64,000 nt of DNA, taken from an uncultured cyanobacterium (GTDB lineage: Bacteria > Cyanobacteriota > Cyanobacteriia > Cyanobacteriales > CAWCAG01). A program made the position numbers and the translations under genes. The DNA is taken from positions 1-64,000 of the forward strand of contig CAWDOD010000003.1 of assembly GCA_963803805.1 (NCBI GenBank). The letters are read 5' to 3'. The first letter of the stretch is position 1. Every line of letters starts with the position of its first letter. The notes below the pieces were generated by a model. It was not told the origin of the DNA. It saw only the letters and a program-made list of their open reading frames with translations, and searched no databases. Shown here piece after piece: positions 5,418 to 56,606 of the stretch.

Positions 5418-5549
5418 AGAAAGGGCTTTCATGTACAATTCTGCAAGCCATTACACATTTGAAATTTTGATTTTATCTTTTCGATTTACCTGAGTGCTTA
5501 ATTTCAGTTACTCTGAGCGTGACATTATTGCAGAACTGCAAACGGCCAC

Positions 5550-6962
5550 CTACTTGGCTTCAGTAGGATAAATAAAAACCGAAGTAGGCACGGCAGTTTC
5601 TTTAATTGCTTTGATGCCGCCAGCCACTTCTACGAAGTTGTGGTATCCTCTGGATTTTAAGATGGACGCACTAATCATGGAGCGGTAGCCACTTTGGCAA
5701 TGGATATGATAGGTTGTGTCTTGCTCGAGCTGAGCCATTTGCTCACTGATAAAATCAAGCGGCAAATTCTGAGCCTGCTCTACATGCTCTGCTTCAAACT
5801 CTGACGGTTTCCGCACATCTACCACCTTCAAATCTTTTTCATGATAGACTTTGGCAAAGTCTGTTGCAGGAATGGAAGTAACATTATCAGTCTGCTTGCC
5901 TGCTGCTTTCCAAGCTTCAAGTCCTCCATCCAAATATCCTAAGGTGTTGTCATACCCCACGCGCGATAAGCGGGTTACTACTTCCTCTTCTCTTCCGGCA
6001 TCCGCCACAAAAATAATCGGTTGCTGCAGGTCAGGAATCAAAGCGCCCACCCAGGGTGCAAAACCGCCATCGATGCCAATAAAAATAGCATTAGGAATAT
6101 GAGCTGCTGCGAAATCTTTTTGGTTGCGTGTATCTAGCACCAGTGCACCTTCATGATTGGCATAAGCCTCAAAAGCCTTTGGCGATAGTGCCACCTTACC
6201 GGTAGCTAAAACCTTTTCTAATCCTGCTGTATGAGCCGATTTATTCATGGCTACATTTGCGGCAAAGTATTGAGGAGGAGGAAGCAAACCATCCGTAAGT
6301 TCCTTTATAAACTCTTCTTTGCTCATGTCCGCCCGCAGCGCATAATTAGTTTTTTTCTGATTGCCGAGCAAATCGGTAGTCTCTTTGCTCATGTTTTTGC
6401 CACAAGCAGAACCTGCACCATGAGCCGGGTAAACTACTACATCATCGGGTAACGTCATTATTTTTGAGCGCAGGCTTTCGTACAACATTCCGGCTAAATC
6501 TTCCTGTGTAACATCACCCTTCTGTGCCAAATCAGGGCGGCCAACATCGCCAATAAAAAGTGTATCACCACTAAAAATAGCTTGTTCTTTCCCTGCTTCA
6601 TCTAACAATAAATAAGTGGTGCTTTCCATGGTGTGTCCCGGTGTATGCAAAGCTTTTATTGTAATTTTACCGATGGAAAAAGTTTCGCCATCTGATGCTA
6701 TATGACTAATAAATTCCGTTTTAGCGGTGGGACCATAAACAATGGTAGCGCCAGTTTTTTTGGCTAAGTCCACATGGCCGGAGACAAAATCGGCATGAAA
6801 ATGCGTTTCAAAAATGTATTTAATGGTGGCATTTCTCTTCTTAGCCCTATCCAAATAAGGCTTGCTCTCGCGTAAAGGGTCAATAATAACGGCTTCTCCC
6901 TCGCTTTCAACATAATAAGCCCCTTGTGCAAGGCAACCGGTGTATATTTGCTCTATATGCAT
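5550..6962 (-). CDS. MBL-fold metallo-hydrolase with tandem rhodanese domains (persulfide dioxygenase-like)
   Basis: THFHADFVSGH, HTPGHT and GDTLFIGDVGRPDL motifs; C-terminal rhodanese HCQSGYRS. Confidence 0.9.
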   Translation of the reverse strand: MHIEQIYTGCLAQGAYYVESEGEAVIIDPLRESKPYLDRAKKRNATIKYIFETHFHADFVSGHVDLAKKTGATIVYGPTAKTEFISHIASDGETFSIGKITIKALHTPGHTMESTTYLLLDEAGKEQAIFSGDTLFIGDVGRPDLAQKGDVTQEDLAGMLYESLRSKIMTLPDDVVVYPAHGAGSACGKNMSKETTDLLGNQKKTNYALRADMSKEEFIKELTDGLLPPPQYFAANVAMNKSAHTAGLEKVLATGKVALSPKAFEAYANHEGALVLDTRNQKDFAAAHIPNAIFIGIDGGFAPWVGALIPDLQQPIIFVADAGREEEVVTRLSRVGYDNTLGYLDGGLEAWKAAGKQTDNVTSIPATDFAKVYHEKDLKVVDVRKPSEFEAEHVEQAQNLPLDFISEQMAQLEQDTTYHIHCQSGYRSMISASILKSRGYHNFVEVAGGIKAIKETAVPTSVFIYPTEAK

Positions 6963-7045
6963 TGTTTTAAATTTATTTTTAACAAAGCTAAAAATCCCTG
7001 AAAAGTTTTGGCAGTAAAATACTAGAATTTACTAGGCAGTCAATT

Positions 7046-7570
7046 TTAAAAACGGATAAACTCGATAGCTTGCTCCGTTAACAATTCATTATACAGCGCA
7101 TCGGTTATTTCTTCTCCATCAAAATTAGCTTCAATATTGGCCAACTTAGGTTTTAGCGCCAGCACATGCATGCCCAAATAATTGAAAATATCCGTCATGT
7201 GGCTCAATGCCAAGCCACCGCCCTGCACCCCTGATGAAATCCCAACCAACGCGCACTTTTTGCCTTTAAAACTATTCGGGTATTCCAGCCCATCTATAAA
7301 TGCCTTTAGCACCCCGGGGAAAGAACCGTTGTATTCCGGTATTATAAATACGAACTTATCGGAAGCCGTAACTTGTTCCCTAAAAGGATTGAATTGCACA
7401 TTTTTACCCGAGTTTTCATACAAAGCCGTAGCAACAAAATCAGCCGGTAACTGTGCCAAATCAATAATAGCAACTTCTTGGCCTTCTGCCTTCAGAAGAT
7501 CGGCATAGAGAGAGGCTACTTGCGAGGAAACTGAATTTTTACGGTTGGTGCCGGCAATAATTGAGATCAT
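7046..7570 (-). CDS. NAD(P)H-dependent FMN reductase
   Basis: GTNRKNS and PEYNGSFPGVLKAFID flavodoxin-like motifs. Confidence 0.88.
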   Translation of the reverse strand: MISIIAGTNRKNSVSSQVASLYADLLKAEGQEVAIIDLAQLPADFVATALYENSGKNVQFNPFREQVTASDKFVFIIPEYNGSFPGVLKAFIDGLEYPNSFKGKKCALVGISSGVQGGGLALSHMTDIFNYLGMHVLALKPKLANIEANFDGEEITDALYNELLTEQAIEFIRF

Positions 7571-7638
7571 GCTTAGATTTTTTCTAAAACAAAAATAGGG
7601 ACTAATAGTCCCTATCTCATCATGTATTATAAATTTTA

Positions 7639-8229
7639 TTACTTGGTAGAAAGCAATAGGTCGATTTTAAAATCATCGTAAATCATTTTGTCTCCTAAAC
7701 CATCGAAAAATGAGCCTGAACCGTATCTGATATCCCATTTGGTTCTGTCTAGGTCAAATTTAGCCGTAGCATTTACTTTGCTACCCACCATACTTACCGC
7801 AGCCGGGAAAGTAATTTTATTGGTTTTACCTTTAATAGTTAAGTCTCCGGCAATAAAATGTGTGGCACCTTCTTGCTTACTCTCGTTTACGGAAGTGATT
7901 TTGAAAGTAGCTGTTGGATGCTTCTCCACACTAAAGAAATCATCGGAACGTAAATGACCCATCAATTTACCTTTAGTGTCTCCACTTAAATCCTGCACAT
8001 CAATGGTAGTCATGTCAATAACAAAATTGCCTCCCGTAATTTGATCGCCATCAACTTCCAGTCCGCCCGATTTAATTTTGACCACGCCATTGTGCTCACC
8101 GGTAACTTTTTCGCCAACCCATTCTATTTTGCTGGCATCCGTATCAATGGCTAGCTCCTTTTTTATTACTGTAAATGCTGAAAGCAATACTGCAATACTT
8201 AATCCGATTGTAAAAATTGATTTTCTCAT
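7639..8229 (-). CDS. YceI family lipid/polyisoprenoid-binding protein
   Basis: Likely start MRKSIF (ATG at 8229) with signal peptide; HLRSDDFF, GDLTIKG and DRTKWDI motifs. Confidence 0.88.
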   Translation of the reverse strand: MRKSIFTIGLSIAVLLSAFTVIKKELAIDTDASKIEWVGEKVTGEHNGVVKIKSGGLEVDGDQITGGNFVIDMTTIDVQDLSGDTKGKLMGHLRSDDFFSVEKHPTATFKITSVNESKQEGATHFIAGDLTIKGKTNKITFPAAVSMVGSKVNATAKFDLDRTKWDIRYGSGSFFDGLGDKMIYDDFKIDLLLSTK

Positions 8230-8370
8230 GTTTTTATATTTAATGTTTAAATTATATGTACCTACATCTAATTTTGATGTAAACTTAATTTTTGTTGTTA
8301 GGTTGCAAAAATTTACTAAAAGTTTTTGCACTCCTGTATAATACACTGAAATTGGTCTAAAGTTTAAAAT

Positions 8371-9192
8371 ATGCATATTAGTTTATCACAGATACAAGAA
8401 GCAGTAGCTTATATACAATCAGAAACAGCCTTTAAACCCGAAGTAGGCATCATACTAGGCACAGGCTTGGGCGCACTCGTGCATGATATTGAGGTAGAGG
8501 CCGCTATCAGTTATGATGACATACCTAACTTCCCTATCTCCACTGTGGAAACGCATTCAGGCAAATTAATATTTGGCACATTAAGCGGTAAAAATGTAGT
8601 GGCCATGCAAGGTCGCTTCCATTATTACGAGGGCTACAGCATGGAGCAGGTAATTATGCCGGTGCGTGTTATGAAACTCTTAGGCATTGAGAAGCTATTT
8701 ATTTCTAATGCGGCAGGCGGGCTGAATGAGTCTTTTCAAACCAGCGATTTGATGGTTGTTGAAGACCACATCGACTTATTCCCAGAAAATCCGCTAAGAG
8801 GGGAGAACATGGATATTTTTGGTGGCCGCTTCCCTGATATGTGGCAAGCTTATGACCACAAATTGATAGCTTTAGCAAAAACGGTGGCCAAAGAACAAGG
8901 AATTGATTTAAAGCAAGGAGTTTACGCAGGAGTTACCGGGCCTAATTTGGAAACCCCTGCGGAGTATCGTTACCTCTCAACCATTGGTGCCGATGCTGTT
9001 GGTATGAGTACCATTCCGGAGACCATTGCCGCACGCCATATGGGTATGCCTGTATTTGCCGTTTCGGTAATTACCGATTTATGCTATCCCGGCAAACTAA
9101 AGCAGGTATCCATCCCTGAAATAATTAGTGCTGCCATGCGCGCTGAGCCTAAAATGACGGCCATATTTAAAGGATTGTTGGTGAAAATGTAG
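8371..9192 (+). CDS. punA: Purine-nucleoside phosphorylase
   Basis: GIILGTGLG, MQGRFHYYEGY, GPNLETPAE and GADAVGMST motifs. Confidence 0.92.
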   Translation: MHISLSQIQEAVAYIQSETAFKPEVGIILGTGLGALVHDIEVEAAISYDDIPNFPISTVETHSGKLIFGTLSGKNVVAMQGRFHYYEGYSMEQVIMPVRVMKLLGIEKLFISNAAGGLNESFQTSDLMVVEDHIDLFPENPLRGENMDIFGGRFPDMWQAYDHKLIALAKTVAKEQGIDLKQGVYAGVTGPNLETPAEYRYLSTIGADAVGMSTIPETIAARHMGMPVFAVSVITDLCYPGKLKQVSIPEIISAAMRAEPKMTAIFKGLLVKM

Positions 9193-9500
9193 ATTTTTAC
9201 GTGATGAGTAAGAAATGGATGGTTTTAAAATATGCCGAATGAGGCCTGAAAGCAAATGGCTTAAGAATGGTGGTAAATCATTGTTAACATTTTTTATACT
9301 GTTAGTTCCTAATTTTTCCTCCCCACTTTCTTACACCTTTTTCTTGAATCTTATATGAATGTCGTTTAGATAAGACCTTAACTCCTTCTGTTGAGGAGAA
9401 GGATTAGAGATGAGGTCATGAATACAAGCTTAACTAAATGACATTGAATCTTATATTTAAAAAATCGATTCGTTAAGCTAATTTCCATCAGTTCAATATG

Positions 9501-9887
9501 TTATTTTAAAAACTCACTACCCATGTAATCTTGCCAACGTACTAAGGTAAATTTTGCGATTCCTTTCGGGTCGGTAAAGGCTAAAAAGCCATATTCGTAG
9601 CAAAATAAGTACACCTGCCCTTGCTTATTTTTCCAGTAGTGTGTAAAAAATAAGGGGTTAAAGCCATCGGTCATGAGCGCTTCTTTCCTAATAGTTGCTT
9701 TCCCCGCCTTGTTGTAGTTTTTAAGAATTCTGCGATTAATTTTTAACTGCTTATCTATATTTCTGTACAAGCTGCTTTCTTTCTGCTTATTGCGCTCATA
9801 GTGGTAGTTTGATTTACAATAGGCTGTGCAAAATTTCTTCCCCAGCCTACCTATTATTTCTTCCCCACAATTAGGACATGGCTTCAT
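9501..9887 (-). CDS. Zn-ribbon hypothetical protein, divergent from the recombinase
   Basis: CPNC...KKFCTAYC zinc ligands, NRRILK and YLFCYEYGF. Confidence 0.7.
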   Translation of the reverse strand: MKPCPNCGEEIIGRLGKKFCTAYCKSNYHYERNKQKESSLYRNIDKQLKINRRILKNYNKAGKATIRKEALMTDGFNPLFFTHYWKNKQGQVYLFCYEYGFLAFTDPKGIAKFTLVRWQDYMGSEFLK

Positions 9888-9987
9888 TAGTGTAGATTTT
9901 GACGTTTATTATACGTTTAAATCTACGTTTAATTTTGTCTATATCACAGATTATTTGGTTGTTTATTTCCTCATAATAAATTAACTA

Positions 9988-11121
9988 ATGGAAAAGCTAC
10001 AGAAAATGATCAGCCTACGGCATCTGGAGGTAAATGGCAAGCGGATGATCGGCCTCAAATTTTATCCTGATAAGGTGATACAGGCCTTGGTAAAAACGCT
10101 ACCCACACCCAAATGGCATAAGCAATATCAGATGGCCTACATTAGCAATAACAAGTTGAATTACGCACAATTGTTGAATACATTTAAAGGAGTGGCCTGG
10201 CTAGATATGCGCTACTTCAGCAAGAAAGGCTGGATGGGTTGTGATGACCCTAGTCTGGTGATTGAGGCATTCAAAAAACGAGAAGTAACGGCTGGCTATA
10301 TAAGATGCCCGGAAAGCTTTCTGGATGAGTTAGAACAACGGAAATATGCAGTTAATACGGTGAGGGTCTATGTAAATTGCTTTGAGAAATTTATCAATTT
10401 TTACCCAAAGACACCTACTGAACACTTAGCCGAAGCTGAAATAAAGGTATTTATACAGAATTTAATAAAAAACAAAGCAAGTGAATCCTACATCAACCAA
10501 CACATAAATGCGATAAAATTCTATTTTGAAATTGTACATAAAATGCCCAATAGGTTCTACGACTTTCCAAGACCACTTAAAGCTGAAAAACTACCGGAAG
10601 TTCTGAGCAAAAAAGAAGTATTGAAGATGATTGACATCACTTTCAACCTAAAACACCAGTGCATTATTAGCACGTTATATTCAGCCGGCCTGAGAAGGAG
10701 CGAGCTTATTGCGCTCAAGATTACAGATATAGATAGCCAGCGAATGATTATTAAGGTAAGAGGTGCAAAGGGAAATAAAGACCGACTCAGTTTATTAAGT
10801 GAACGCTTACTTTTAAAGCTCAGGCTATATTTTAGGAATTACAAGCCCCGGGTTTACTTATTTGAAGGCTTTCCGGGAGAAGTTTACAGCGCTACCAGTG
10901 TGAGCAATATTGTTAAAAAAGCTGCAAAAAAAGCGTGTATCCCTAAAAATGTTACTCCGCATACATTGCGACATTCTTTTGCCACGCATTTACTGGAGAG
11001 TGGAACGGATTTACGCTATATACAAACCCTACTCGGCCACAATAGTAGTAAAACCACAGAAATTTATACCCATGTGGCCACAAATGTTTTCAAAGAAATA
11101 AATAATCCGTTAGATTGCTAA
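9988..11121 (+). CDS. Tyrosine recombinase with N-terminal SAM-like domain; candidate cassette integrase
   Basis: Full catalytic set: YSAGLRRSE (R), KGNKDR (K), HTLRHSFATH (HxxR), LLGH and TTEIYTHV (Y). It lies immediately upstream of the cassette array. Confidence 0.92.
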   Translation: MEKLQKMISLRHLEVNGKRMIGLKFYPDKVIQALVKTLPTPKWHKQYQMAYISNNKLNYAQLLNTFKGVAWLDMRYFSKKGWMGCDDPSLVIEAFKKREVTAGYIRCPESFLDELEQRKYAVNTVRVYVNCFEKFINFYPKTPTEHLAEAEIKVFIQNLIKNKASESYINQHINAIKFYFEIVHKMPNRFYDFPRPLKAEKLPEVLSKKEVLKMIDITFNLKHQCIISTLYSAGLRRSELIALKITDIDSQRMIIKVRGAKGNKDRLSLLSERLLLKLRLYFRNYKPRVYLFEGFPGEVYSATSVSNIVKKAAKKACIPKNVTPHTLRHSFATHLLESGTDLRYIQTLLGHNSSKTTEIYTHVATNVFKEINNPLDC

Positions 11122-11124
11122 AGA

Positions 11125-11174
11125 TACAGCGGAACTATCAACCACCAGTGGTTGATAGTCGGTTGTTGTACACC
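11125..11174 (+). other. Candidate primary (attI-like) recombination site
   Basis: Just after the recombinase stop: TACAGC-gga-ACTATCAACCAC-ca-GTGGTTGATAGT-cggtt-GTTGTACACC. This is a perfect 12-bp inverted repeat followed 5 nt later by the first GTT core (11165). Confidence 0.6.
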
Positions 11175-11192
11175 ATTTAAGAAAACGCAGAA

Positions 11193-11804
11193 TTGAATCA
11201 AGAAATAAAAATATCACGTTCGGACTTAATCGCAAAATGCGACCAATATCTGAATGGAGAAATTATAGAAAAGGATTTTGAAAATTATGCGTGGAATCTA
11301 ATAACCGAAGAACATATTGATTGGGACGATGATGTAATATCTGACATCATTTATCAATGGGACAGTCCAGAAATTAACTTTCCGATTACGAAACAAAACA
11401 TAATACTTTGGAAACATCAATTGGAAACTGATGAGGATTTATTGGCGGATTACAATATGTGGAACGCACATATCGACCGACAGAAAAAGATTTGTGAAAA
11501 GTTTGGTTCTAAATGGAATCCAATCAATAAAAAACTGAAAATCGGAGTGGGTTCTGATTTGAATGCCGACCCAATTCACGCATTGAGGCATCCAAAGGAA
11601 AAAGGAACTACAGGTTGGTACATTTGGACAGGAGAATATTCGGAATCTGATGATTTTTTCCAGCCAATGTGTGCTGAACATTTGCTTCAAATCCGACCTG
11701 AATTAATCAAATATTTCGGACTTGATGTTGGTTATCGATTTTTAATTGATAAAAACGAATACGAAGATGTTTGGTATGACGTAAATCTAAAAAATGTGGA
11801 ATAA
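11193..11804 (+). CDS. Cassette 1: Imm33-like immunity-domain protein
   Basis: C-terminal HALRHP..GTTGWYIWTGEYS..DFFQPMCAEHL resembles Imm33-type domains (recognised by eye). Confidence 0.55.
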   Translation: MNQEIKISRSDLIAKCDQYLNGEIIEKDFENYAWNLITEEHIDWDDDVISDIIYQWDSPEINFPITKQNIILWKHQLETDEDLLADYNMWNAHIDRQKKICEKFGSKWNPINKKLKIGVGSDLNADPIHALRHPKEKGTTGWYIWTGEYSESDDFFQPMCAEHLLQIRPELIKYFGLDVGYRFLIDKNEYEDVWYDVNLKNVE

Positions 11805-11808
11805 AAAC

Positions 11809-11871
11809 GGTGTACAACAAAGGGTATAGTGCATGCCCTGCGGGACACGCACCATACCCAAACCGTTAGCG
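11809..11871 (+). repeat. attC-like site 1
   Basis: GGTGTACAAC-aaa-GGGTATAGTGCATG...CACGCACCATACCC-aaacc-GTT. Confidence 0.85.
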
Positions 11872-12207
11872 GCAATACCTTAGTAATAAAGAAATTGGTT
11901 CATTGAAAATCTTGAATTGTAGGATTGACCTGATATTTGGTTTTGTCCTCTCAACCGAAGTACAGTTGGACTTCTCTTGGATTATAAACATGGTTCCATT
12001 TATAACAATTATGAATATGAAAAAAGTAGCAAGAACTCTGGAAATGGTTAAAACATTAATAGTTTTATGTGCAATTGGGGCAGGAACACTTCTGGGGAAG
12101 TCCAAGTACTTCGGTTGCAAGAGAATATTCCAAGCTCAACTTTCCTACAGAAATTCAAGAGTAAGTGTCGGGGGAGAAATCCCCCCTTCCCCACCAAATA
12201 TAATCTC

Positions 12208-13104
12208 ATGAAAAAATCTCCAATTGATGTCTTATTTTACGAGCTATTTGGTTTCTATCCTAATAAGGCTGGGAGTGCTTACGAAATTTTAACCGCTGCT
12301 GCTATAAGAATAATTACTGGTGAAGAAGTGGAATTAGACCAGCGAGTTATGGGCAACTATAGTGATACAATTTATCAAGTGGACGGGGTAACGAAGAGCC
12401 AGTCACACGAATCGATGATTGAGGCTAAAGACTATACAATTCAGAATAAGAAAGTCGGACGAGGAGACATTCAAAAATTGCAGGGAGCATTGAGCGATTT
12501 GCGTTTTAAAGAAGGATTATTTACTTCGGCTACTGACTTTACAAAACCAGCAAAGAAATATGCTGAATCTTCCTTTCTCAATCCTAGTCAAAAACCAGTA
12601 CAATTATATCAGATAAGACCCTCTACCGAGGAAGATGAAAAAGGGCGAATCAAAAAATTTGAGATCACAATGGTTATGGTTCTTCCAAATTTTGAAAAAG
12701 CTAAGTACAAATATGCTTGGACAGAAGAGGCAGTTGAAAAATTCAAAAAGAATGGATTAGCAAACAAACAAATTTCAATTAAGGTCGAGACTCTTTACGA
12801 GGATAATGGAAGTTTTGCCACTAGTATTCAAGATTTCACACATGATAACCAACCAATATTGATGGATATTGATGAAGAATTAGCTAAAGGTTGTTGGATC
12901 TTTCGAGGGCTTTGTATTAAGCATGAAAACGAATATTATGGACTAAAGGGAATTGATTACGAAATCCCTTATTATCGCTTTTCAAGTACGTTTACAATAG
13001 AATCAGAAGGGAAGCCTAAAATATACGTGGCATCTGAAAATGGAGATGTAAACAAACTTATTACGGATAAACAGCTAAGAGAAATGATACGAATCAAAAA
13101 ATAA
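12208..13104 (+). CDS. Cassette 2: Mrr-like PD-(D/E)xK restriction endonuclease domain protein
   Basis: YE...QVDG...IEAKDY motif. Likely ATG at 12208 (MKKSPIDV), after a ~340 bp leader. Confidence 0.7.
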   Translation: MKKSPIDVLFYELFGFYPNKAGSAYEILTAAAIRIITGEEVELDQRVMGNYSDTIYQVDGVTKSQSHESMIEAKDYTIQNKKVGRGDIQKLQGALSDLRFKEGLFTSATDFTKPAKKYAESSFLNPSQKPVQLYQIRPSTEEDEKGRIKKFEITMVMVLPNFEKAKYKYAWTEEAVEKFKKNGLANKQISIKVETLYEDNGSFATSIQDFTHDNQPILMDIDEELAKGCWIFRGLCIKHENEYYGLKGIDYEIPYYRFSSTFTIESEGKPKIYVASENGDVNKLITDKQLREMIRIKK

Positions 13105-13106
13105 AA

Positions 13107-13303
13107 GCCGCTAACATTCTGTATGAAATCATGGCTGGTCAGTGGTATACGGAACTTTAGCTCTTTGTAGAAAGCCCGTCAATCCGCAGGATTGACTTAG
13201 TGTATTGAGAAAAATTAGCAAGCCAATCCTGCGGATTGCCTAGTTAGTAACTTGAAACTTTTGTACTTTTAAATCAGCCACGCTTCATACAGTGGCGTTG
13301 GGC
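13107..13303 (+). repeat. attC-like site 2 (family B, ~195 bp)
   Basis: GCCGCTAAC-att-CTGTATGAAATCATGGCTG...CAGCCACGCTTCATACAG-tggc-GTT. Confidence 0.85.
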
Positions 13304-13337
13304 ACAATTTAAACGAACGACAGTAACAATATAAAAT

Positions 13338-15863
13338 ATGGTTGACTTTAAGAAAAGATTGAACAAATCTGCAATCGACAAGAAAACAGACCCGATTGAA
13401 ATATATGATTCTTTAGATAGGAGAAGTATTGCAGGTCCTTTAAGACCAGCACAGAATAAAATTCTTAAGGAATGGTATAATTCTCAGTCAACCAAAAAAG
13501 ACTTAATTATTAAACTTCATACGGGAGAGGGAAAAACATTAATTGGTTTATTAATTCTTCAATCCAAAATTAACGCAGACCAAGGCCCTTGTTTATATGT
13601 TTGCCCTAATAAATATCTTGTTCAGCAAGCTAAAAAAGATGCCAAAAAGTTTGGTATAAGTTATTGCTCTATTGAACCTGATGGTTCAGTTCCAAATGAA
13701 TTTATAGACGGTAAAAAAATATTGATAACACACGTTCAAAAAGTATTTAACGGTAAAACTGTATTTGGCATTGGGAATGATTACATACCAGTAGAAAATA
13801 TAGTTTTGGACGATTCACACGCTTGTATTGATTCTATAAGAGATTCTTTCACGATTAACCTTGACAAAGACCACCAGATTTATAAAAAATTGAGGGAATT
13901 ATTCAAAGATAGTTTGTCAGACCAAGGTCAGGGAACATTTTTGGAAATTGAGAATGGAGACTATAACTCGTTTTTGCCAATACCATATTGGAGTTGGATA
14001 GATAAGTCTGAAGAATTACTAAGTATTCTTTCAGAGTATCGAGAGGAAACAGAGTTAGCTTTTGCTTGGCCATTTATTAAAGACAACATTAAAAACTGTC
14101 AAGCATTCATATCAGGACAGAATATTGAAATCACACCAATTCACATACCTATTGAAAAGTTTACATTCTTTGATAATGCTAAACAAAGAATTTTGATGTC
14201 TGCTACAACGCAGGACGATTCCTTTTTTATAAAGGGTTTGGGTTTTAATATTGATGCTGTAAAATCACCTTTAACCAATCCCGAACAGATTTGGTCAGGA
14301 GAAAAAATGTTATTGATTCCCTCTTTAATAGATGAAAAACTTGACCGCATCACAATTGTTAATGCATTAGCCTCACCTTCTGCAAAGAACTATGGAGTAG
14401 TATCATTAGTTTCCTCGTTTTCAAAATCTGAAATTTACCATTCACTTGGTGCAATTGTTCCTAAATCAGAACAGATTGGTCAAGTAGTTGACCATTTAAA
14501 AAAAGGGAATTACAAAGAGACTGTTGTCTTTGCAAATAGGTATGACGGTATTGATTTGCCTGATGAAACTTGTCGTATTCTCGTACTTGATGGTAAACCA
14601 TTCTTTTATTCATTATCTGATAGATATGAAGAAGCCAATCGTGTAAATAGTGATTCAATTAATATCAAAATCGCGCAAAAAATAGAACAAGGTTTAGGTA
14701 GAAGTGTAAGAGGTGAGAAAGACTACTGCATTATCTTCTTGATTGGTGCAGACCTTGTAAAATTCATAAAAAGTAGCAGAACAAATAAATATTTCTCATC
14801 TCAGACAAAAAAACAACTTGAAATAGGACTTGAAATTGCTGAAATGGCAGTTGAAGAACTCTCCGACAAGAATCAACCAATGGATGCAATGAAGTCTTTA
14901 ATGAAACAACTTTTACAAAGAGACGAAGGTTGGAAAGAATTCTACAAAGAAGAAATGAATAAAATAGTATCAGAACAAAATAACAGTTCTATATATGAAA
15001 CATTGGTATTAGAGCGTAAAGCAGCAGTTTCAAACTATTCCGGAGACTATGAAAAAGCTTGTGATTCAATCCAAAAAATAGTCGACAATTACTGCAATAA
15101 TGAAAGTGAGCGAGGTTGGTACTTACAATTATTGGCTAGATACAAATATTTAGACTCAAAAGTAGAGGCTAATTCATTACAAAAATCTGCTTTTTTAAAA
15201 AACCACGAATTACTTAAACCAAGTGAAGGAATAAATTATAAAAAATTAGAATATATAAATGAAAATAGAGTTCAGAGAATTTTAAGCTACATAAAAAACT
15301 TCCAAAGCTATCAAGAGCTTATGATAAGCATTGAAGGTGTTTTAAGTGACCTAGAATTTGGAACTTCATCAGAAAAATTTGAATCTGCTTTGAAAGAACT
15401 TGGTTTAATGCTTGGCTTTTTAAGTGAACGCCCTGATAAGGAGTTTAAAAAAGGTCCTGACAATTTATGGTGCGGTGTCAGCAATCAATATTTCATTTTT
15501 GAATGCAAAAGTGAAGTAAACATTGAAAGACAAGAGATTAACAAAAATGAAGCAGGACAAATGAATACACATTGTGCTTGGTTTGAAAGTCAATATGGAG
15601 AATCTCAAGTCAAAAGAATTTTAATCATACCAACTAAAAATCTTTCTTATCACGGAGATTTTGGACGTGATGTTGAAATTATGCGAAGAGGGACACTCAA
15701 AAGTTTGCGTACCAATGTCAAATCATTTTTTAAGGAGTTTAGTAAATACGAAATTCAGTCTTTAACTGATGAAAAAATACAGGAATTTATAAACGCACAC
15801 AAACTAGACATTGAATCATTAAAAACCTTATACTCAGAAAAATACTATAAGAAAACAAATTAA
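13338..15863 (+). CDS. Cassette 3: SF2 (DinG/XPD-like) helicase with C-terminal PD-(D/E)xK nuclease-like domain (Hna-like architecture)
   Basis: HTGEGKT Walker A, LDDSH, SAT and QGLGRSVR motifs; C-terminal GPDNLW...FECKS. Confidence 0.75.
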   Translation: MVDFKKRLNKSAIDKKTDPIEIYDSLDRRSIAGPLRPAQNKILKEWYNSQSTKKDLIIKLHTGEGKTLIGLLILQSKINADQGPCLYVCPNKYLVQQAKKDAKKFGISYCSIEPDGSVPNEFIDGKKILITHVQKVFNGKTVFGIGNDYIPVENIVLDDSHACIDSIRDSFTINLDKDHQIYKKLRELFKDSLSDQGQGTFLEIENGDYNSFLPIPYWSWIDKSEELLSILSEYREETELAFAWPFIKDNIKNCQAFISGQNIEITPIHIPIEKFTFFDNAKQRILMSATTQDDSFFIKGLGFNIDAVKSPLTNPEQIWSGEKMLLIPSLIDEKLDRITIVNALASPSAKNYGVVSLVSSFSKSEIYHSLGAIVPKSEQIGQVVDHLKKGNYKETVVFANRYDGIDLPDETCRILVLDGKPFFYSLSDRYEEANRVNSDSINIKIAQKIEQGLGRSVRGEKDYCIIFLIGADLVKFIKSSRTNKYFSSQTKKQLEIGLEIAEMAVEELSDKNQPMDAMKSLMKQLLQRDEGWKEFYKEEMNKIVSEQNNSSIYETLVLERKAAVSNYSGDYEKACDSIQKIVDNYCNNESERGWYLQLLARYKYLDSKVEANSLQKSAFLKNHELLKPSEGINYKKLEYINENRVQRILSYIKNFQSYQELMISIEGVLSDLEFGTSSEKFESALKELGLMLGFLSERPDKEFKKGPDNLWCGVSNQYFIFECKSEVNIERQEINKNEAGQMNTHCAWFESQYGESQVKRILIIPTKNLSYHGDFGRDVEIMRRGTLKSLRTNVKSFFKEFSKYEIQSLTDEKIQEFINAHKLDIESLKTLYSEKYYKKTN

Positions 15864-17789: not shown

Positions 17790-17858
17790 ACACACAACAC
17801 TGTATATGAAATCATGGCACCCTGCGGGATGCCACGCTTCATATACTTAACGTTAGCA
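17790..17858 (+). repeat. attC-like site 5 (short)
   Basis: ACACACAAC-act-GTATATGAAATCATGGCA-ccctgcggga-TGCCACGCTTCATATAC-ttaac-GTT. Confidence 0.85.
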
Positions 17859-18853
17859 ACAACTCCCCTTCCATTCAAAAAACTCACTTAATAATCAATC
17901 AGTCTGCCCCTATTGTTGTACCTAAAACTTTGGCTACGCTCGGACTCGCCTTATCGATAATGTAAGTAGCGGACTGATAGGCATTCGGCAAACCTCTTTC
18001 CGCACGGCTACCTGCTTAGTTACTTATGCGGACTACTCAGCAGGCTGTGGAGAAAGCATGGTCTGGAACTGAATTCACAGCAACTTTCCCTCCCACCGGG
18101 ACGAGTAGGTATCTGCCAGCAGTGTAGCCTAGCGTGGGGACGATTTGAGATGCAGTTGCTAACACAATGTAAAAACCATGCGCTTACCCACCTTGTGGAC
18201 AGTTTATCAGTCAATCCCGCAATTTTGGCGAGCAGCGCAAAATAGTAAAAGGCCACCAGCCACCATAAATGGATAGGGGCAATTGACAGTAATCATAAAA
18301 TTGCTAACTTAACCTGCAAAATATACCGTGGCGCAAGGTTTTTACACGCGCCCGTTAGCAACAACTCCCTTTCCATTCAAAAACTCGCTGAATAATCCAT
18401 CAGTCTGCCACTAATACTGTATCTAAAACTTTTGCTACGTTCGGACGCGCCTTACCGACAATGTAACTAGCGGACTGATAGGCATTCGGCAAACCTCACT
18501 CCGAACGGCTACCCAATTAGTTATCTATGCGGACTGCTCAGCAGGCTGTGGAGAAAGCATAGTGGAACTGAATTCACAGCAACTTTCGCTCTCACCGGGA
18601 CGAGTAAGTATCTGCCAGCAGTGTAGCCTAGCGTGGGGACAATATGAGATGCAGTTGCTAACACAATGTAAAAACCATGCGCTTACCCACCTTGTGGACA
18701 ATTTATCAGTCAATCCCGCAATTTTGGCGAGCAGCGCAAAACAGTAAAAAGTCACCAGCAGCTATAAATGGACAGGGGCAATCGGCAGTAGCCATAAAAT
18801 TGCGAACTTAACCTGCAAAATATACCGTGGCGCACGGATTTTTACACGCGCCC
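17852..18853 (+). repeat. Cassettes 6 and 7: tandem diverged ~500-bp ORF-less cassettes with att sites 6 (18155-18360) and 7 (18654-18860)
   Basis: Two copies (17852-18353 and 18354-18853), each GTTAGCAAC...GTTGCTAAC followed by TGTAAAAACCATGCGC...GCGCA..TTTTTACA-cgcgccc-GTT. Confidence 0.85.
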
Positions 18854-18887
18854 GTTAGGTGTCATTAAATAAAACTGTACTGCATAA

Positions 18888-19999: not shown

Positions 20000-20133
20000 G
20001 ACACCTAACAATGTATATAAAAAATAGGCGAAACAGTAGTAAATCCAAAGATTTTAGCTCGTTTCTAACTTTTTGCTTAAATGAAAGTTTAGTGCTTCGA
20101 AATCGCCTACTTTTCATATACCAAACGTTAGCG
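20000..20133 (+). repeat. attC-like site 8 (family A)
   Basis: GACACCTAAC-aat-GTATATAAAAAATAGGCGA...TCGCCTACTTTTCATATAC-caaac-GTT. Confidence 0.85.
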
Positions 20134-21555
20134 GCAATACCTTAGTAATAAAGAAATTGGTTCATTGAAAATCTTGAATTGTAGGATTGACCTGATATTT
20201 GGTTTTGTCCTCTCAACCGAAGTACAGTTGGACTTCTCTTGGATTATAAACATGGTTCCATTTATAACAATTATGAATATGAAAAAAGTAGCAAGAACTC
20301 TGGAAATGGTTAAAACATTAATAGTTTTATGTGCAATTGGGCAGGAACACTTCTGGGGAAGTCCAAGTACTTCGGTTGCAAGAGAATATTCCAAGCTCAA
20401 CTTTCCTACAGAAATTCAAGAGTAAGTGTCGGGGGAGAAATCCCCCCTTCCCCACCAAATATAATCTCATGAAAAAATCTCCAATTGATGTCTTATTTTA
20501 CGAGCTATTTGGTTTCTATCCTAATAAGGCTGGGAGTGTTACGAAATTTTAACCGCTGCTGCTATAAGAATAATTACTGGTGAAGAAGTGGAATTAGACC
20601 AGCGAGTTATGGGCAACTATAGTGATACAATTTATCAAGTGGACGGGGTAACGAAGAGCCAGTCACACGAATCGATGATGAGGCTAAAGACGATACAATT
20701 CAGAATAAGAAAGTCGGACGAGGAGACATTCAAAAATTGCAGGGAGCATTGAGCGATTTGCGTTTTAAAGAAGGATTATTTACTTCGGCTACTGACTTTA
20801 CAAAACCAGCAAAGAAATATGCTGAATCTTCCTTTCTCAATCCTAGTCAAAAACCAGTACAATCATATCAGATAAGACCCTCTACCGAGGAAGATGAAAA
20901 AGGGCGAATCAAAAAATTTGAGATCACAACGGTTATGGTTCTTCCAAATTTTGAAAAAGCTAAGTACAAATATGCTTGGACAGAAGAGGCAGTTGAAAAA
21001 TTCAAAAAGAATGGATTAGCAAACAAACAAATTTCAATTAAGGTCGAGACTCTTTACGAGGATAATGGAAGTTTTGCCACGAGTATTCAAGATTTCACAC
21101 ATGATAACCAACCAATATTGATGGATATTGATGAAGAATTAGCTAAAGGTTGTTGGATCTTTCGAGGGCTTTGTATTAAGCATGAAAACGAATATTATGG
21201 ACTAAAGGGAATTGATTACGAAATCCCTTATTATCGCTTTTCAAGTACGTTTACAATAGAATCAGAAGGGAAGCCTAAAATATACGTGGCATCTGAAAAT
21301 GGAGATGTAAACAAACTTATTACGGATAAACAGCTAAGAGAAATGATACGAATCAAAAAATAAAAGCCGCTAACATTCTGTATGAAATCATGGCTGGTCA
21401 GTGGTATACGGAACTTTAGCTCTTTGTAGAAGCCCGTCAATCCGCAGGATTGACTTAGTGTATTGAGAAAAATTAGCAAGCCAATCCTGCGGATTGCCTA
21501 GTCAGTAACTCGAAACTTTTGTACTTTTAAATCAGCCACGCTTCATACAGTGGCG
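20127..21555 (+). pseudogene. Cassette 9: near-identical copy of cassette 2 (Mrr-like nuclease) with frameshifts, including att site 9 (21366-21561)
   Basis: Matches 11865-13297 from GTT to GTT; 1-nt deletions near 20538 and 20679 break the ORF. Confidence 0.9.
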
Positions 21556-23760: not shown

Positions 23761-23880
23761 TCAATATAACAAACACTATCATCCATAAGCTTACAGAGCT
23801 ATTTGCAAAGGCTGGTGCTATAAGATACTTTTATAGAAATTTGAAAAGTCTAGCTTACGGATGATAGTTGGGCGTTGGCG
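23761..23880 (+). repeat. attC-like site 11
   Basis: TCAATATAAC-aaac-ACTATCATCCATAAGCT...AGCTTACGGATGATAGT-tgggc-GTT. Confidence 0.85.
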
Positions 23881-26166: not shown

Positions 26167-27006
26167 ATGATTGACCCTGTAACTGGATTGACAATTTTAG
26201 GAGGAGCCTTCGGGGGAGCAAAAGTTCTTGAAAAAATATTAGGCCCTACCTCTGAATATATTGGTGACCAAATAAAGGAATGGACAAAAAAGAAAGTTGA
26301 AAATACTTCCAATATTTTCAAAAATGCAGAGAAAAAACTTGGTGATAAGATTAAGAATGATGGCCAGGTTCCTCCAAAGGTTCTAAAAGGAATATTAGAA
26401 GATGGTGCCTGGTGCGAAGAAGATCTGCAGGTAGAATATTTTGGAGGCGCTCTTGCTTCTTCCAGATCAGGTGTATCCAGAGATGATAGAGGTGCTTATT
26501 TTGTGTCCTTAATTGCAAGATTAACTACGTATCAATTAAGAACTCACTATCTATTTTATCATTTAATAAAGAAGCACTTTGATGGTCAAGATATAAACAT
26601 CAATGATGGTAATAATTGGAGAAACCTTGAAATTTTCCTGCCTTTCGAAACATTTTACCACGCTATGGATTTTACGGAAGATGAAGCCAACGATTGGTCG
26701 AACATCCTTTCCCATGCGGTTTGGGGATTGAACAAAGAAGAACTTTTGACTGGTTTTAGCTGGGGGCCAAAAGATCATGTCCAGAAGAAATTCAAACTTG
26801 CGGACACGGATGGAATAATCTTTCAACCTACAAAATCTGGTGTAGAATTATTTATGTGGGCATACGGTCATGGACAAGATTCAGTAAACAACTTCTTTAG
26901 TTCTGAACTCATATTCCCTAACGATCAAGCAATCAAAATTGGCAGCTCTGTTTCGACAAAAGAGGAAAAAGAAATGGAGCAAGAAAAAAAGAAAAACAAC
27001 AGCTAA
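26167..27006 (+). CDS. Cassette 15: hypothetical protein, possibly Abi-alpha-like
   Basis: VPPKVLKGILEDG..EEDLQVEYFGGALASS pattern; family guess is tentative. Confidence 0.5.
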   Translation: MIDPVTGLTILGGAFGGAKVLEKILGPTSEYIGDQIKEWTKKKVENTSNIFKNAEKKLGDKIKNDGQVPPKVLKGILEDGAWCEEDLQVEYFGGALASSRSGVSRDDRGAYFVSLIARLTTYQLRTHYLFYHLIKKHFDGQDININDGNNWRNLEIFLPFETFYHAMDFTEDEANDWSNILSHAVWGLNKEELLTGFSWGPKDHVQKKFKLADTDGIIFQPTKSGVELFMWAYGHGQDSVNNFFSSELIFPNDQAIKIGSSVSTKEEKEMEQEKKKNNS

Positions 27007-27052
27007 CAAAACCTAAACTGCATTAAAACGCAGTTTAGCCAAACCGTTGTGC
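26998..27052 (+). repeat. attC-like site 15 (minimal, 55 bp)
   Basis: AACAGCTAAC-aaaac-CTAAACTGC-attaaaac-GCAGTTTAG-ccaaacc-GTT. Confidence 0.85.
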
Positions 27053-44215: not shown

Positions 44216-44529
44216 CTGTGCCCAACAACTAAGCATTCGTGTGGTCGGTACGACCCAACATAGCCTGTCCCGCAATTCGGGAAATGCAGTGTTGAGCGAA
44301 TCAGTAGCTTGCTAGAAGTGCTGCACCCTTATGGGTAAACCGAAATGATTGAGTTTAATGTCAGGGCTTAAAAGTGTTTACTTTTAAGCTGGAAGGAGTA
44401 GTCAAATCAAGTATTTTAAGGCTTTATCATATGACTTTTAATATTTTCATTGATTGAGGAGCTATTTTTTCCTCATTTTAGCACATTTTGAGCGTAGTTT
44501 TTCCATTACGCCCATTGCCGTTTCATTTT

Positions 44530-45669
44530 TTAGTGTCCTTTTAGTTTATTGAGCCAATGAAGAGGTGGTCCCCTTTGATCAAAGACTGCCACGGTTTGAA
44601 GTTTTCCTTTTTTGCAGGTTGGGCAGATGCCCAAGCAGGTAGCGATTGATTCAGCAATAATAATTTCAAGCTTACCTATTTGGCTCTCTATTATCGCCTT
44701 ACATGCTTTTTTACGGCTGCCCGATAAAATACCAAAATGCCTGATTCGAGTAACACCTTTTGGCAGGATATGCATGGCAAACCTTCTGATAAATTCCTTT
44801 GTCTTTAAAGTCACCACATGCTTTTTGCCACCTCTCCTGTACTCTTTGGCAGAGAAGCTGACCCCGTCCTTGTCCACATCGATCAGCCGGTGGTTGCTGA
44901 TGGCCACTTTATGGGTATACCTGCCTAGCCCCGATAGCTATCGGGGCCACTACTTGAGTAGGTCCATAAAATTGTTGCTTGCAATAGATCACCCAGTTCT
45001 TTTTAAACAACAGTTGGCCCTCCTGCTTGGTCAGCAGTTCTTCTTTTCTTAATGCGGCCACCATCTTTGCTCTAAATACTTTGCTCATGGCCTTTACAGG
45101 GAAAAGATATTTGCCCTTTCCCTTACCCTCTTTCCATTTTCCCGATCGGGTCAATCCCCCTGAAGGAATGATACAGTGAAGATGTGGGTGCAGGCTCAGG
45201 TTCTGCCCCCATGTATGGAGCACGGCAATCATGCCGTTGTGGGCGCCCATCAACTTGGGGTTAGCCGCAAAATCCTTTACCACTTGCCAAGCTGTTTTGA
45301 ACAATAGCGCATATAGCAATCCAGGCTGTTCCAAGGCCAAACCATTGAGGGTATCGGGCAGGGAAAACACCGTATGAAAATAGGAGGTGTTGAGTAAATC
45401 CTTTTCCCTTTCCTGCACCCACTTTTGCTGTAGGTGCCCTTGATCCCGATAGCTATCGGGAGGCAGTGCCTGTTGCGGCAGCTATTGTAGCTGAGGTGCA
45501 ATTTATTGCATTTAGGATTATCACAGCGATCAAGGTGACCTCCCATGGCAGACGTCCTGCATTTTGCCAATGCATACAGCGTCCTGCGCTTCCAGCTATT
45601 GCCGATAAGACTTGGCAGTTCATGTAGCTGTTGTTGCAGGATTTGCTGTACTTCAAAAGTGGGCTTCAT
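44530..45669 (-). pseudogene. IS91-family (Y2) transposase, broken into three frames
   Basis: CRT..MGGH, YNSCRNRHC, HTWGQNLSLHPHLH (HUH) and FIRRFAMHILPKG motifs. Confidence 0.85.
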
Positions 45670-46526
45670 GACCGGTAGAGTTTCTCTAAAGGAGAAAAAG
45701 GCAGTTGCCTGCCCACCCTTGCCACATGCAGGTAGCCCAAGGTGGTCTGGATGTCACCATGCCCGAGCAGATCTTTGAGGGTGATGATATCGGTGCCCAT
45801 TTCCAGCAGATGGGTGGCGTAGCTGTGACGAAGGGTATGGGCTGTGATTTGCTTCTTGATACCTGAGCGTTGCCTGGCTTCACGCATCACCCATTGCACT
45901 CCTCTGGTGGAAAGCCCGGTATATCCTCCTTCTTCATCGGATTGCCCGTTGAAAAGAAATTCAACAGGTTTTTCCGCTTCAAGATAGGTTTCAACGCCAC
46001 GGATCAGTAAGTCACAAAGCGGAACATAGCGGTCTTTCTTTCCTTTTCCCTCCCTCACATGGAGCTGTTTCCTGATTAAATCAAGATCAACAATTTTAAG
46101 CTTGCACAACTCGAAGTTCCTCAGCCCACAGCCATAGAGCAACGCCATCATTAATCGGTGCTTCAGTAGTTTTGGAGTCTTTAAAAGTAAGCGTACTTCT
46201 TGCTGACTTAATACAACGGGTAGTGCCTTCTGCCTTCCAATGGAGGGTAATATCACCCTGCTTTCTGTGCGGTCAAATATCCTGTAGAGGTAGCGAAGTC
46301 CGTAAACGGTGTGCTTGAAGAAGCTATCAGAAGGCGTCTTCCTTTTGGACTTTAACATGTGCAGATAATCCAGGATTTGCTCGTCATCCAGTTCCAGCAA
46401 ATCACATTGCAAGTGCAGACCCATATGTGCCAAACACCTCCCATAATTAGTGAGTGTGCTCTGGCTTTTGCCGGCAATATCAATACTTCTTCTTAGCCTT
46501 TTGTACTGTAGGCCGAAGCCTGGCAC
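45666..46526 (-). CDS. Tyrosine recombinase of the IS91-associated type
   Basis: YGCGLRNFE, KGKKDR, HTLRHSYATH, LLGH and TTLGYLH motifs. The natural ATG (46569) is out of frame across an A8 run. Confidence 0.88.
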   Translation of the reverse strand: MPGFGLQYKRLRRSIDIAGKSQSTLTNYGRCLAHMGLHLQCDLLELDDEQILDYLHMLKSKRKTPSDSFFKHTVYGLRYLYRIFDRTESRVILPSIGRQKALPVVLSQQEVRLLLKTPKLLKHRLMMALLYGCGLRNFELCKLKIVDLDLIRKQLHVREGKGKKDRYVPLCDLLIRGVETYLEAEKPVEFLFNGQSDEEGGYTGLSTRGVQWVMREARQRSGIKKQITAHTLRHSYATHLLEMGTDIITLKDLLGHGDIQTTLGYLHVARVGRQLPFSPLEKLYRS

Positions 46527-56017: not shown

Positions 56018-56211
56018 ATCCCATAGCTTTCTGTTGTTAACACCAGCTTAGGTGTGTCCGATACTCTTTCCTGGGATAGGGGAAACATTCCGGATCGATA
56101 GACTAGAGATTAGCTTTTTTTACTGGCATTTCCTGGTTATTACTTAATTTACTTCAACAAAAATGCGCCTTGCATCAGTAAAAGCAAAGCGCATCCAGTA
56201 TTTATAAGTAA

Positions 56212-56606
56212 TGGAGCCGAGCAGAGTCGAACTGCTGTCCAAATTGGCTATTGACTTTCTATTCGTTCACAGGCTTAGCCCTTTTAACCCTTAAGGCGGG
56301 GATCGACCTTTATCCCGGACGATAGGATTCTCTAGTAAGTTCTTAGGTTTTTACTTGACCAGAGGCAGAGTAAAAACAGCATCCGTTGGGGTTATATCCG
56401 CAGCCCTTAACGGAGTCAGACTACAGATGCTCGGACCTATAAGAGGTTTTTTTTAGGCAACAGCAACAGCAGTTGTCTTACGAGCAAAAGGAACGATGTT
56501 GTTCGCATTTACATTGTTTTTGAATCTTGTATTTACGAGAGGAGATTCACTCTCGACCTGAATCACAGATAAGTTTTCACCAACTTGTCGAAACCGTGAC
56601 GGCCCC
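56212..56606 (-). ncRNA. ssrA: tmRNA
   Basis: 5' GGGGCCGTCACGGTTTCGAC and 3' GTTCGACTCTGCTCGGCTCCA. The tag frame 56506-56453 encodes ANNIVPFARKTTAVAVA*, a cyanobacterial-type tag. Confidence 0.95.

Follow-up and report, generated by a model that had tools for sequence, protein, structure and literature searches.

A conserved hairpin between a Xer-like recombinase gene and a cassette array is the probable attI counterpart of an integron-like platform

Integrons are defined by the integrase IntI, whose extra domain is held to permit the recombination of folded single-stranded attC sites, and extrahelical bases are a hallmark of classical attC. The classical attI site is double-stranded and consists of short L and R boxes, to which attI1 adds direct-repeat binding sites, whereas dif, the site of the Xer recombinases, has a fixed central region of 6–8 bp. 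Here we analyze a site in a 64,000-nucleotide (nt) stretch of DNA, positions 1 to 64,000 of contig CAWDOD010000003.1 (the window; all coordinates are 1-based on its forward strand), in which a palindrome followed by the triplet GTT lies between a tyrosine recombinase gene and an array of 27 cassettes. Comparison of this site with orthologous loci and with metagenomes suggests that the palindrome and its GTT are probably the fixed recombination site of the platform, that is, a counterpart of the integron attI that is built like a minimal attC hairpin.

The closest described arrangement is that of the Treponema integrons, in which, according to the paper that describes them, intI is ‘transcribed toward the attI’ and the IntI proteins retain key integron-integrase residues (PMC3607928). 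The locus studied here resembles Treponema-type integrons in that the recombinase gene is co-oriented with the array; unlike the Treponema IntI proteins, the recombinase lacks ~43 residues of the IntI insert, scores under the integron-integrase cut-off and has an extra N-terminal domain. For an integron-like subgroup of tyrosine recombinases, one published passage says that the insertion ‘is not fully conserved’ (PMC8138268), and integrons are reported to be almost absent from Bacteroidota, the 2022 survey made with IntegronFinder 2.0 listing a single complete one for Bacteroidetes, from Salinibacter ruber (PMC9024848). A full-text literature search, judged by title and abstract, returned no Bacteroidota cassette array under a recombinase of this kind and no attI of the hairpin type; what is new here is the conserved hairpin entry site, together with metagenome evidence for the first cassette.

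Directly 3′ of the recombinase gene, with a stem that begins 12 nt past the stop codon, stands an inverted repeat whose arms are 100% complementary (Table 1). A sequence-only reading had described a perfect 12-bp repeat with the usual 5-nt spacing to GTT, a left core that is degenerate (TACAGC instead of TACAAC) and an arm that resembles that of the eleventh attC site of the array, and every element of this description is present in the sequence. In particular, the arms of the two sites are equal at 9/10 bases, and the single difference is compensated on the opposite arm. The first boundary of the array is the second GTT of GTTGTT, at 11165, because the ten bases that begin there, GTTGTACACC, are the exact reverse complement of GGTGTACAAC at 11809–11818. 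Folded as single-stranded DNA, the + strand of the site reached −11.1 kcal/mol (z −3.67; equalled by 0 of 200 shuffles) and the − strand −10.8 kcal/mol (z −3.19; equalled by 2 of 200). The 26-nt palindrome has a single occurrence in the 5.3-Mb genome, even with up to 3 mismatches permitted.

Table 1 Features of the platform, its hairpin site and the cassette array in the window
Feature	Position	Strand	Description
Small divergent open reading frame (ORF), 128 aa	9501–9887	−	CxxC...C motif; upstream of recombinase
Tyrosine recombinase, 377 aa	9988–11121	+	N-terminal extension of ~108 aa, SAM-like core-binding domain, catalytic domain
AGA	11122–11124	+	directly 3′ of recombinase stop codon
Degenerate left core (R″-like), TACAGC	11125–11130	+	5/6 complementary to GTTGTA at 11165–11170
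Left spacer, GGA	11131–11133	+	3 nt
Left arm (L″), ACTATCAACCAC	11134–11145		12 bp
Loop, CA	11146–11147		2 nt
Right arm (L′), GTGGTTGATAGT	11148–11159		12 bp
Right spacer, CGGTT	11160–11164	+	5 nt, from right arm to GTT core
R′ core, GTTGTACACC	11165–11174	+	GTT 11165–11167, then GTACACC 11168–11174; start of cassette 1
Cassette 1 body, GTT...AAC	11165–11818	+	Imm33-like ORF 11193–11804 (Pfam PF24719, E 5.8e-41)
First attC hairpin, AAC...GTT	11816–11867	+	52 nt; bottom strand folds better than top
attC at eleventh site	23762–23876	+	arms ACTATCATCC / GGATGATAGT; same 5-nt spacer to GTT
Array of 27 cassettes	11165–44226	+	~33 kb; final AAC core 44218–44226
IS91-family transposase (three frame pieces) and its own 286-aa tyrosine recombinase	44530–46526	−	right after last attC-like core

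The architecture of the site is that of the attC sites of the array. Like them it has, in order, an R″-like box, a spacer, the L″ and L′ arms, a second spacer and GTT, and its asymmetric spacers (left, 3 nt; right, 5 nt) are those of the array's attC sites; like them, too, it folds, and its pairing is conserved by compensatory change among 27 loci, as set out below. Unlike them, it has almost no loop, a stem that in the window is perfect, a left core without AAC and a fixed position after the recombinase gene. The term ‘mismatch-free’, used of the site in the sequence-only reading, holds for the stem in the window and fails as a general property, a perfect stem of at least 9 bp being present in 16/29 orthologous sites.

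We assembled the orthologous loci from 30 loci found by a search of the family that holds locus L004, together with L004, L005 and L007. L109, L124 and L125, in which no full-length frame was found, were dropped, as were L093 (the same place as L006), which is cut at a contig end, and L091 and L092, which duplicate L004 and L005; the final set, which includes the window, consists of 29 loci with at least 75 nt 3′ of the stop codon. Within 75 nt of the stop, the longest perfect stem was at least 6 bp in 24/29 loci, at least 9 bp in 16/29 and at least 12 bp in 7/29, compared with 29.6%, 1.4% and 0.3% of 2753 windows drawn at random from these loci and 31.5%, 0.8% and 0.1% of 1450 shuffles. In several of the orthologous sites, read by eye, the left arm is bulged. 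A hairpin stands 3′ of the stop, in a fixed register with GTT, in 27/29 loci: where a stem of 6 bp or more is accompanied by a GTT within 40 nt (23 loci), the stem ends 0–9 nt before GTT, and the GTT-anchored consensus is A[T/C][C/T]C-N4-GTT, with A at −8 in 26/27 loci. In L005, the array of that metagenome-assembled genome (MAG) contains a second copy of the attI-like site, at 7880–7950, ~750 nt downstream of the first and with the same AATGCGGRTATTTACTT-GTT motif.

An alignment of the 27 sites made with MAFFT has a conserved left motif composed of AYATAA, G-rich bases and GRATAWA, and a conserved right motif composed of TTATNC, 4 nt and GTT. RNAalifold predicted zero pairs on this alignment. 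When nine basal pairs were named by hand from three alignment rows, a choice that makes the pair count lean on a structure taken from the same sequences and that the slid controls below only partly offset, standard pairs occupied 81.0% of the cells (27 loci by nine pairs), compared with 62.9 ± 2.0% after shuffling. Cells altered on both sides numbered 48, compared with 20.5 ± 3.1, and the covariation score was 0.381, compared with 0.119 ± 0.020; for each of the three measures 0 of 500 shuffles reached the observed value. As a control, sliding the 3′ partner by 1–3 columns left 28–60% of the cells paired. Two of the pairs are nearly invariant (T-A in 26/27 sites and A-T in 27/27). The palindrome had been expected to be kept beside orthologous recombinases, and what is kept there is a hairpin in fixed register with GTT, the pairing of which covaries.

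The expectation that went with it, that the cassette downstream would vary, was borne out as well: close relatives resemble each other as far as GTT and are at background identity after it. For the five closest pairs in which the site is conserved, identity over the last 150 nt of the gene, over the site (stop to GTT) and over the 60 nt after GTT was, respectively, 0.91, 0.92 and 0.62 (L114/L117), 0.85, 0.84 and 0.60 (L111/L113), 0.83, 0.84 and 0.55 (L115/L119), 0.83, 0.81 and 0.58 (L106/L108), and 0.82, 0.76 and 0.60 (L108/L120). Past GTT these pairs are thus at the background level, a mean of 0.59 across all 325 pairs. Without gaps, L114/L117 and L115/L119 are identical over the 12–14 nt that end with GTT, and the sequences are unrelated right after it. 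In L099/L101, which are equally close (gene 0.85), the site is less alike (0.69). The GTT next to the hairpin was confirmed as a cassette start, by its exact six bases together with AAC downstream, in 12/27 loci, exact matches alone being counted as one mismatch would raise the number of chance matches; of the other 15 loci, 4 have 1.9–8.1 kb downstream with zero exact matches and 11 have at most 1134 nt downstream. Chains of cassettes follow the site in extended loci, for example eight cassettes in L134.

A further line of evidence comes from the first cassette itself. Sequencing runs that contain parts of 10700–12000 were found, and four of them (X1–X4), metagenomes from four studies labelled algae, salt lake and ice (two), were compared with the window; contigs of all four contain cassette 1 at ~97–98% identity, with 14–18 differences over ~650 nt (X4 in shorter pieces). 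Homology to cassette 1 starts at 11165 (X1), 11167 (X3 and X4) or 11174 (X2) and stops at 11819 (X1, X3 and X4) or 11820 (X2). The sequence 5′ of the cassette in X1, X3 and X4 is unlike that of the window and resembles the 3′ ends of ordinary attC hairpins (the X2 contig begins with the match itself, so that no 5′ flank is visible), and 3′ of 11819 the metagenome contigs carry other hairpins. Given these breakpoints in four metagenomes, cassette 1 is evidently a mobile, circulating unit, the left edge of which is here the GTT beside the palindrome, and the breakpoints are direct evidence for a recombination junction at 11165. An unexpected finding was that gene body and hairpin travel apart, homology being broken at AAC as well as at GTT; the 52-nt first hairpin (11815–11869) was found alone in contigs of X2, X3 and X4, with flanks that are unlike on both sides. 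Whereas classical integron cassettes carry their own attC, gene bodies (GTT...AAC) and hairpins (AAC...GTT) thus seem to be exchanged here as separate modules.

Taken together, the persistence of the hairpin in 27/29 loci, its covariation, the divergence after GTT and the behavior of cassette 1 uphold one part of what had been proposed for the site, namely that it belongs to the fixed part of the platform, with an array that starts at its GTT; the other part, that cassettes would enter preferentially at this point, belongs to the mechanism that we propose. Cassettes could also be read through from the recombinase transcript, as the same reading had suggested, although the hairpin is flagged as terminator-like. 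In this mechanism, the recombinase would recognize the stem, with the invariant TA/TA core in its arms, the 4–5-nt spacer and GTT. Because the site has the geometry of attC and a TA core like that of the attC arms, we infer that the recombinase recognizes it as it does attC, most simply as folded DNA, and during recognition the site would most likely be folded as a hairpin or cruciform. Strand exchange with the hairpin site of an incoming cassette would then take place within GTT, where the position of cleavage is assigned by analogy with integrons. The left core would have lost the AAC that is present in all 27 attC sites of the window: among the attI-like sites AAC occurs at the canonical spacing (2–6 nt before the stem) in 1/27, and the orthologues have AYAYAA(T/G)-like motifs at the left core position. 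With AAC lost from the left core, only the cassette side could cross over, and the recombinase gene would never be excised. If both the AAC and the GTT edges of ordinary hairpins cross over, as the metagenome breakpoints suggest, it is understandable that the platform site has lost its AAC.

So read, the site would be like the integron attI in being a single site beside the recombinase gene at which the array starts, with a crossover in GTT and the first cassette on the right side, and in being one-sided, the cassette side alone being competent. It is unlike classical attI in that it is a hairpin-forming palindrome of attC geometry in which structure rather than sequence is conserved.

Several observations weigh against this interpretation. 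L121 and L122, orthologous loci at 47% identity, are without the site, and in the plasmid homologues described below, at ~40% identity, the right half alone is recognizable (an ATCC- or ATAC-type box, 4 nt and GTT) and a clear hairpin is absent. The orthologous loci are kin, so the counts given above are of non-independent events. AAC triplets stand 7–10 nt 5′ of the stem in 11/27 loci, which makes a displaced left core possible. Eight of the 29 sites, that of the window included, are near-perfect palindromes with a loop of 0–2 nt, a form that would also fit a duplex site for a protein dimer, and the covariation of the hairpin fits an RNA hairpin, whether a terminator or a stabilizer of the mRNA 3′ end, equally well.

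The eight near-perfect palindromes raise the possibility that the palindrome is a duplex operator for a dimer of the recombinase or of the product of the small divergent ORF, the true crossover site being the adjacent half-site. We regard this as unlikely. Among the close relatives L106, L108, L116 and L123 the inner stems are wholly different and are self-complementary nonetheless, which argues for intrastrand pairing rather than for a protein that reads the sequence. Moreover, where the stem of an orthologous site reaches 6 bp or more, the loop measures from 0 to 13 nt, a range that does not fit a single fixed half-site spacing.

It is quite unlikely, in our judgment, that the hairpin is a mere terminator or mRNA 3′-end stabilizer of the recombinase gene and that its nearness to GTT is incidental. 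The short distance to the stop codon would suit such a role, covariation is also expected from selection at the level of RNA, and a terminator scan does list the site (11 pairs, 4 of them GC; tail CGGTTGTTGT). However, terminator-like sites are not enriched in the window (3, compared with 2.2 expected), the stems are rich in AT, and just 10/27 orthologous sites are followed by a T-rich tail (at least 5 T in 8). Nor would a terminator explain the fixed register between stem and GTT, with its A at −8, the spacing and TA core that the site has in common with attC sites, or the agreement of its arms with those of one attC at 9/10 bases. A dual role, as recombination site and terminator, is possible.

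That the site is an ordinary, partly decayed attC left by an old cassette, with no special entry role, is very unlikely: although the site has attC architecture and arms nearly identical to those of the eleventh attC, and the array contains a second mismatch-free site, a short attC at 26999–27048 with a perfect 9-bp stem, a random leftover would not persist directly past the stop in 27/29 orthologous loci, nor would it be expected to change in step with the gene (identity 0.76–0.92 for the site and 0.82–0.91 for the gene 3′ end).

Signals that could drive transcription into the array were also sought. In the window, no sigma-70-like site aimed into the array was found near 11000–11170, and no TAnnTTTG motif, the consensus of the Bacteroidota-type promoter (−7) element, was found from −200 to +60 of GTT. 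TAnnTTTG is present in 14/27 orthologous loci, in 12 of which it lies 49–99 nt upstream of GTT. In 12/27 loci (L007, L098, L104, L105, L107, L123 and others) the form TA(A/T)ATTTG falls within the 3′-terminal part of the recombinase gene, where it could act as a cassette promoter.

The recombinase that would act on the site is Xer-like in its comparisons with known families. From residue 109 onward it matches the Pfam families PF00589 (phage-integrase catalytic domain) and PF13495 (SAM-like core-binding domain), and an alignment of 18 homologues shows no variation in the residues at catalytic positions. It scores 212.9 bits against the NCBIfam model XerA_Arch (NF040815; cut-off 220), 196.1 bits against the integron integrase model TIGR02249 (cut-off 265; match in two stretches) and 122.4 against PRK15417 (cut-off 435), and it is under the cut-off of every Xer family model. 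Its best match among solved structures is the XerC-like protein 4a8e (E 1.8e-38, in a single stretch), whereas its alignment with VchIntIA (2a3v) is split between query residues 114–279 (chain 12–178) and 303–371 (chain 245–313). The 23 query residues in between (280–302) stand opposite 66 residues of IntI (179–244), so that ~43 residues, and with them the IntI-specific insert, are missing. Judged by these alignments, the recombinase is Xer-like and lacks the additional domain of IntI (the I2 helix region). With XerA and XerC/D it shares catalytic and core-binding domains that are closest to XerA/XerC-like proteins; unlike Xer/dif systems, it scores under the XerA cut-off, its gene heads a 33-kb array, and its proposed site has a palindrome centre of 0–13 nt and a crossover that would lie outside the palindrome. 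Like an integron, the locus has attC-bounded cassettes with a GTT crossover, in which the 5′ end of each cassette is complementary to its own R″ core; because the IntI-specific insert is absent, it is not a canonical integron as defined by IntI.

For the N-terminal 120 residues of the recombinase no Pfam family was found even at E 10. The model of this domain is a beta-beta-alpha-beta-beta-alpha-beta unit with a mean predicted local distance difference test score (pLDDT) of 78, for which Foldseek returned nothing at E ≤ 0.001. The best look-alikes with a link to DNA in VIA-align are the N-terminal domain of T4 UvsW (Z 6.1, root-mean-square deviation 2.2, 61 residues aligned), the N-terminal domain of archaeal XPB (Z 5.7) and the HARP domain of SMARCAL1 (Z 4.1), in a range of Z that is common for the tool; they give a weak hint of a junction-binding role. 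Combining this hint with the findings above, we tentatively offer a bolder conjecture: the locus would represent an integron-like family of Bacteroidota with a folded-hairpin entry site, in which both integration partners are folded DNA and the Xer-like recombinase works without the IntI insert, perhaps aided by an N-terminal domain whose fold bears a weak resemblance to the junction-binding domains of UvsW, XPB and SMARCAL1-HARP. The AAC and GTT edges would both be crossover points, so that bodies and hairpins are shuffled separately, and AAC would have been lost from the platform precisely so that shuffling cannot remove the recombinase gene.

The product of the small ORF upstream of the recombinase gene matched no family in Pfam or NCBIfam, and tblastn found a homologue of it, divergent and upstream of the recombinase, in 29/36 loci, the window included. 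From this conservation the fixed platform is predicted to consist of the small divergent ORF, the recombinase gene and the hairpin site. A cassette-type boundary upstream of the recombinase gene, in the form of the complement of the left core, was sought in 7000–12000 and none was found, so the alternative of a recombinase gene that is one of the cassettes was rejected.

A search for homologues of the recombinase (E 1e-40 to 1e-60) was negative for 40 relatives and for 400 genomes each from the class and the order; the search detects known homologues in control genomes, and in this the protein is unlike a housekeeping Xer. The recombinase family is large. At E ≤ 1e-60 it was found in 114 of 201 genomes from the family to which L004, a MAG labelled Crocinitomicaceae, belongs. 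A scan of viral contigs with the recombinase gave no match, and a metagenome scan with very general peptide patterns retrieved mostly shorter Xer-like relatives and few usable full-length ones. The plasmid homologues L088–L090 (from Rufibacter, Pontibacter and Chondrinema) head rows of small co-directional genes, a layout like that of the window, and genes for IS110-family transposases and for a group II intron reverse transcriptase lie within or beside these rows. Relatives of IS110-family elements and of group II introns reportedly target attC sites in classical integrons.

The array follows a simple rule: each cassette begins with GTT and six bases, the reverse complement of which, together with AAC, stands at the 3′ end of the same cassette. 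The rule is exact in 24/27 cassettes and near-exact, by eye, in 2 more, and the last (27th) cassette runs into the IS91-family element. Between AAC and the next GTT are hairpin sites of 44–206 nt, which have the layout YAAC, 3 nt (sometimes more), left arm, variable loop, right arm, ~5 nt and GTT, the left arm usually with [G/C]TA[T/A]A. No extrahelical bases were seen in the window stems that were read. The bottom strand gave the more stable fold in 20/24 attC sites, a weak signal, as the difference is small and is seen for a perfect hairpin too.

Other features of the array can be noted. Several different cassettes have a pair of ends in common, for example GTTAGCGGC...GCCGCTAAC at 11865, 20127 and 38910. 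A cassette for an Mrr-type nuclease is duplicated (11865–13297 and 20127–21555), the frame of the second copy being broken, and a cassette of ~500 nt without an ORF is in tandem repeat (17852–18354 and 18354–18854). From 44216, at the end of the array, a truncated last site is followed by the IS91-family element, in which the transposase gene is broken and the recombinase (286 aa) is 37% identical to that of the platform. A tmRNA gene (Rfam RF00023, 125 bits) lies at 56209–56606 (−), ~12 kb past the array end. The same-genus genome G001 matches the window at 92–94% only from ~49083 on and leaves 5500–9450 unmatched, so the integron-like platform is, by this comparison, within a strain-specific region of more than 43 kb (window ~5500 to ~49080). 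The first three cassettes (11193–15863) encode an Imm33-like domain protein, an Mrr_cat restriction-endonuclease-like protein and an 841-aa ResIII/DEAD helicase, which suggests a cargo of defence or immunity.

The locus thus presents a 33-kb array of 27 cassettes that is headed by a recombinase without the IntI domain and by a docking site kept as a structure in dozens of genomes, and at least one of its cassettes circulates, as shown by metagenomes with the labels algae, salt lake and ice. If our interpretation of the site is true, it would supply a defined substrate of ~50 nt for the question of how a Xer-like enzyme handles folded DNA. It would also give such platforms a simple signature (stop codon, hairpin, 4–5 nt, GTT), and tools based on IntI may miss them. 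Finally, it would show a way in which a gene-capture platform protects its own recombinase gene, and arrays of this kind may serve as stores of defence and immunity genes.

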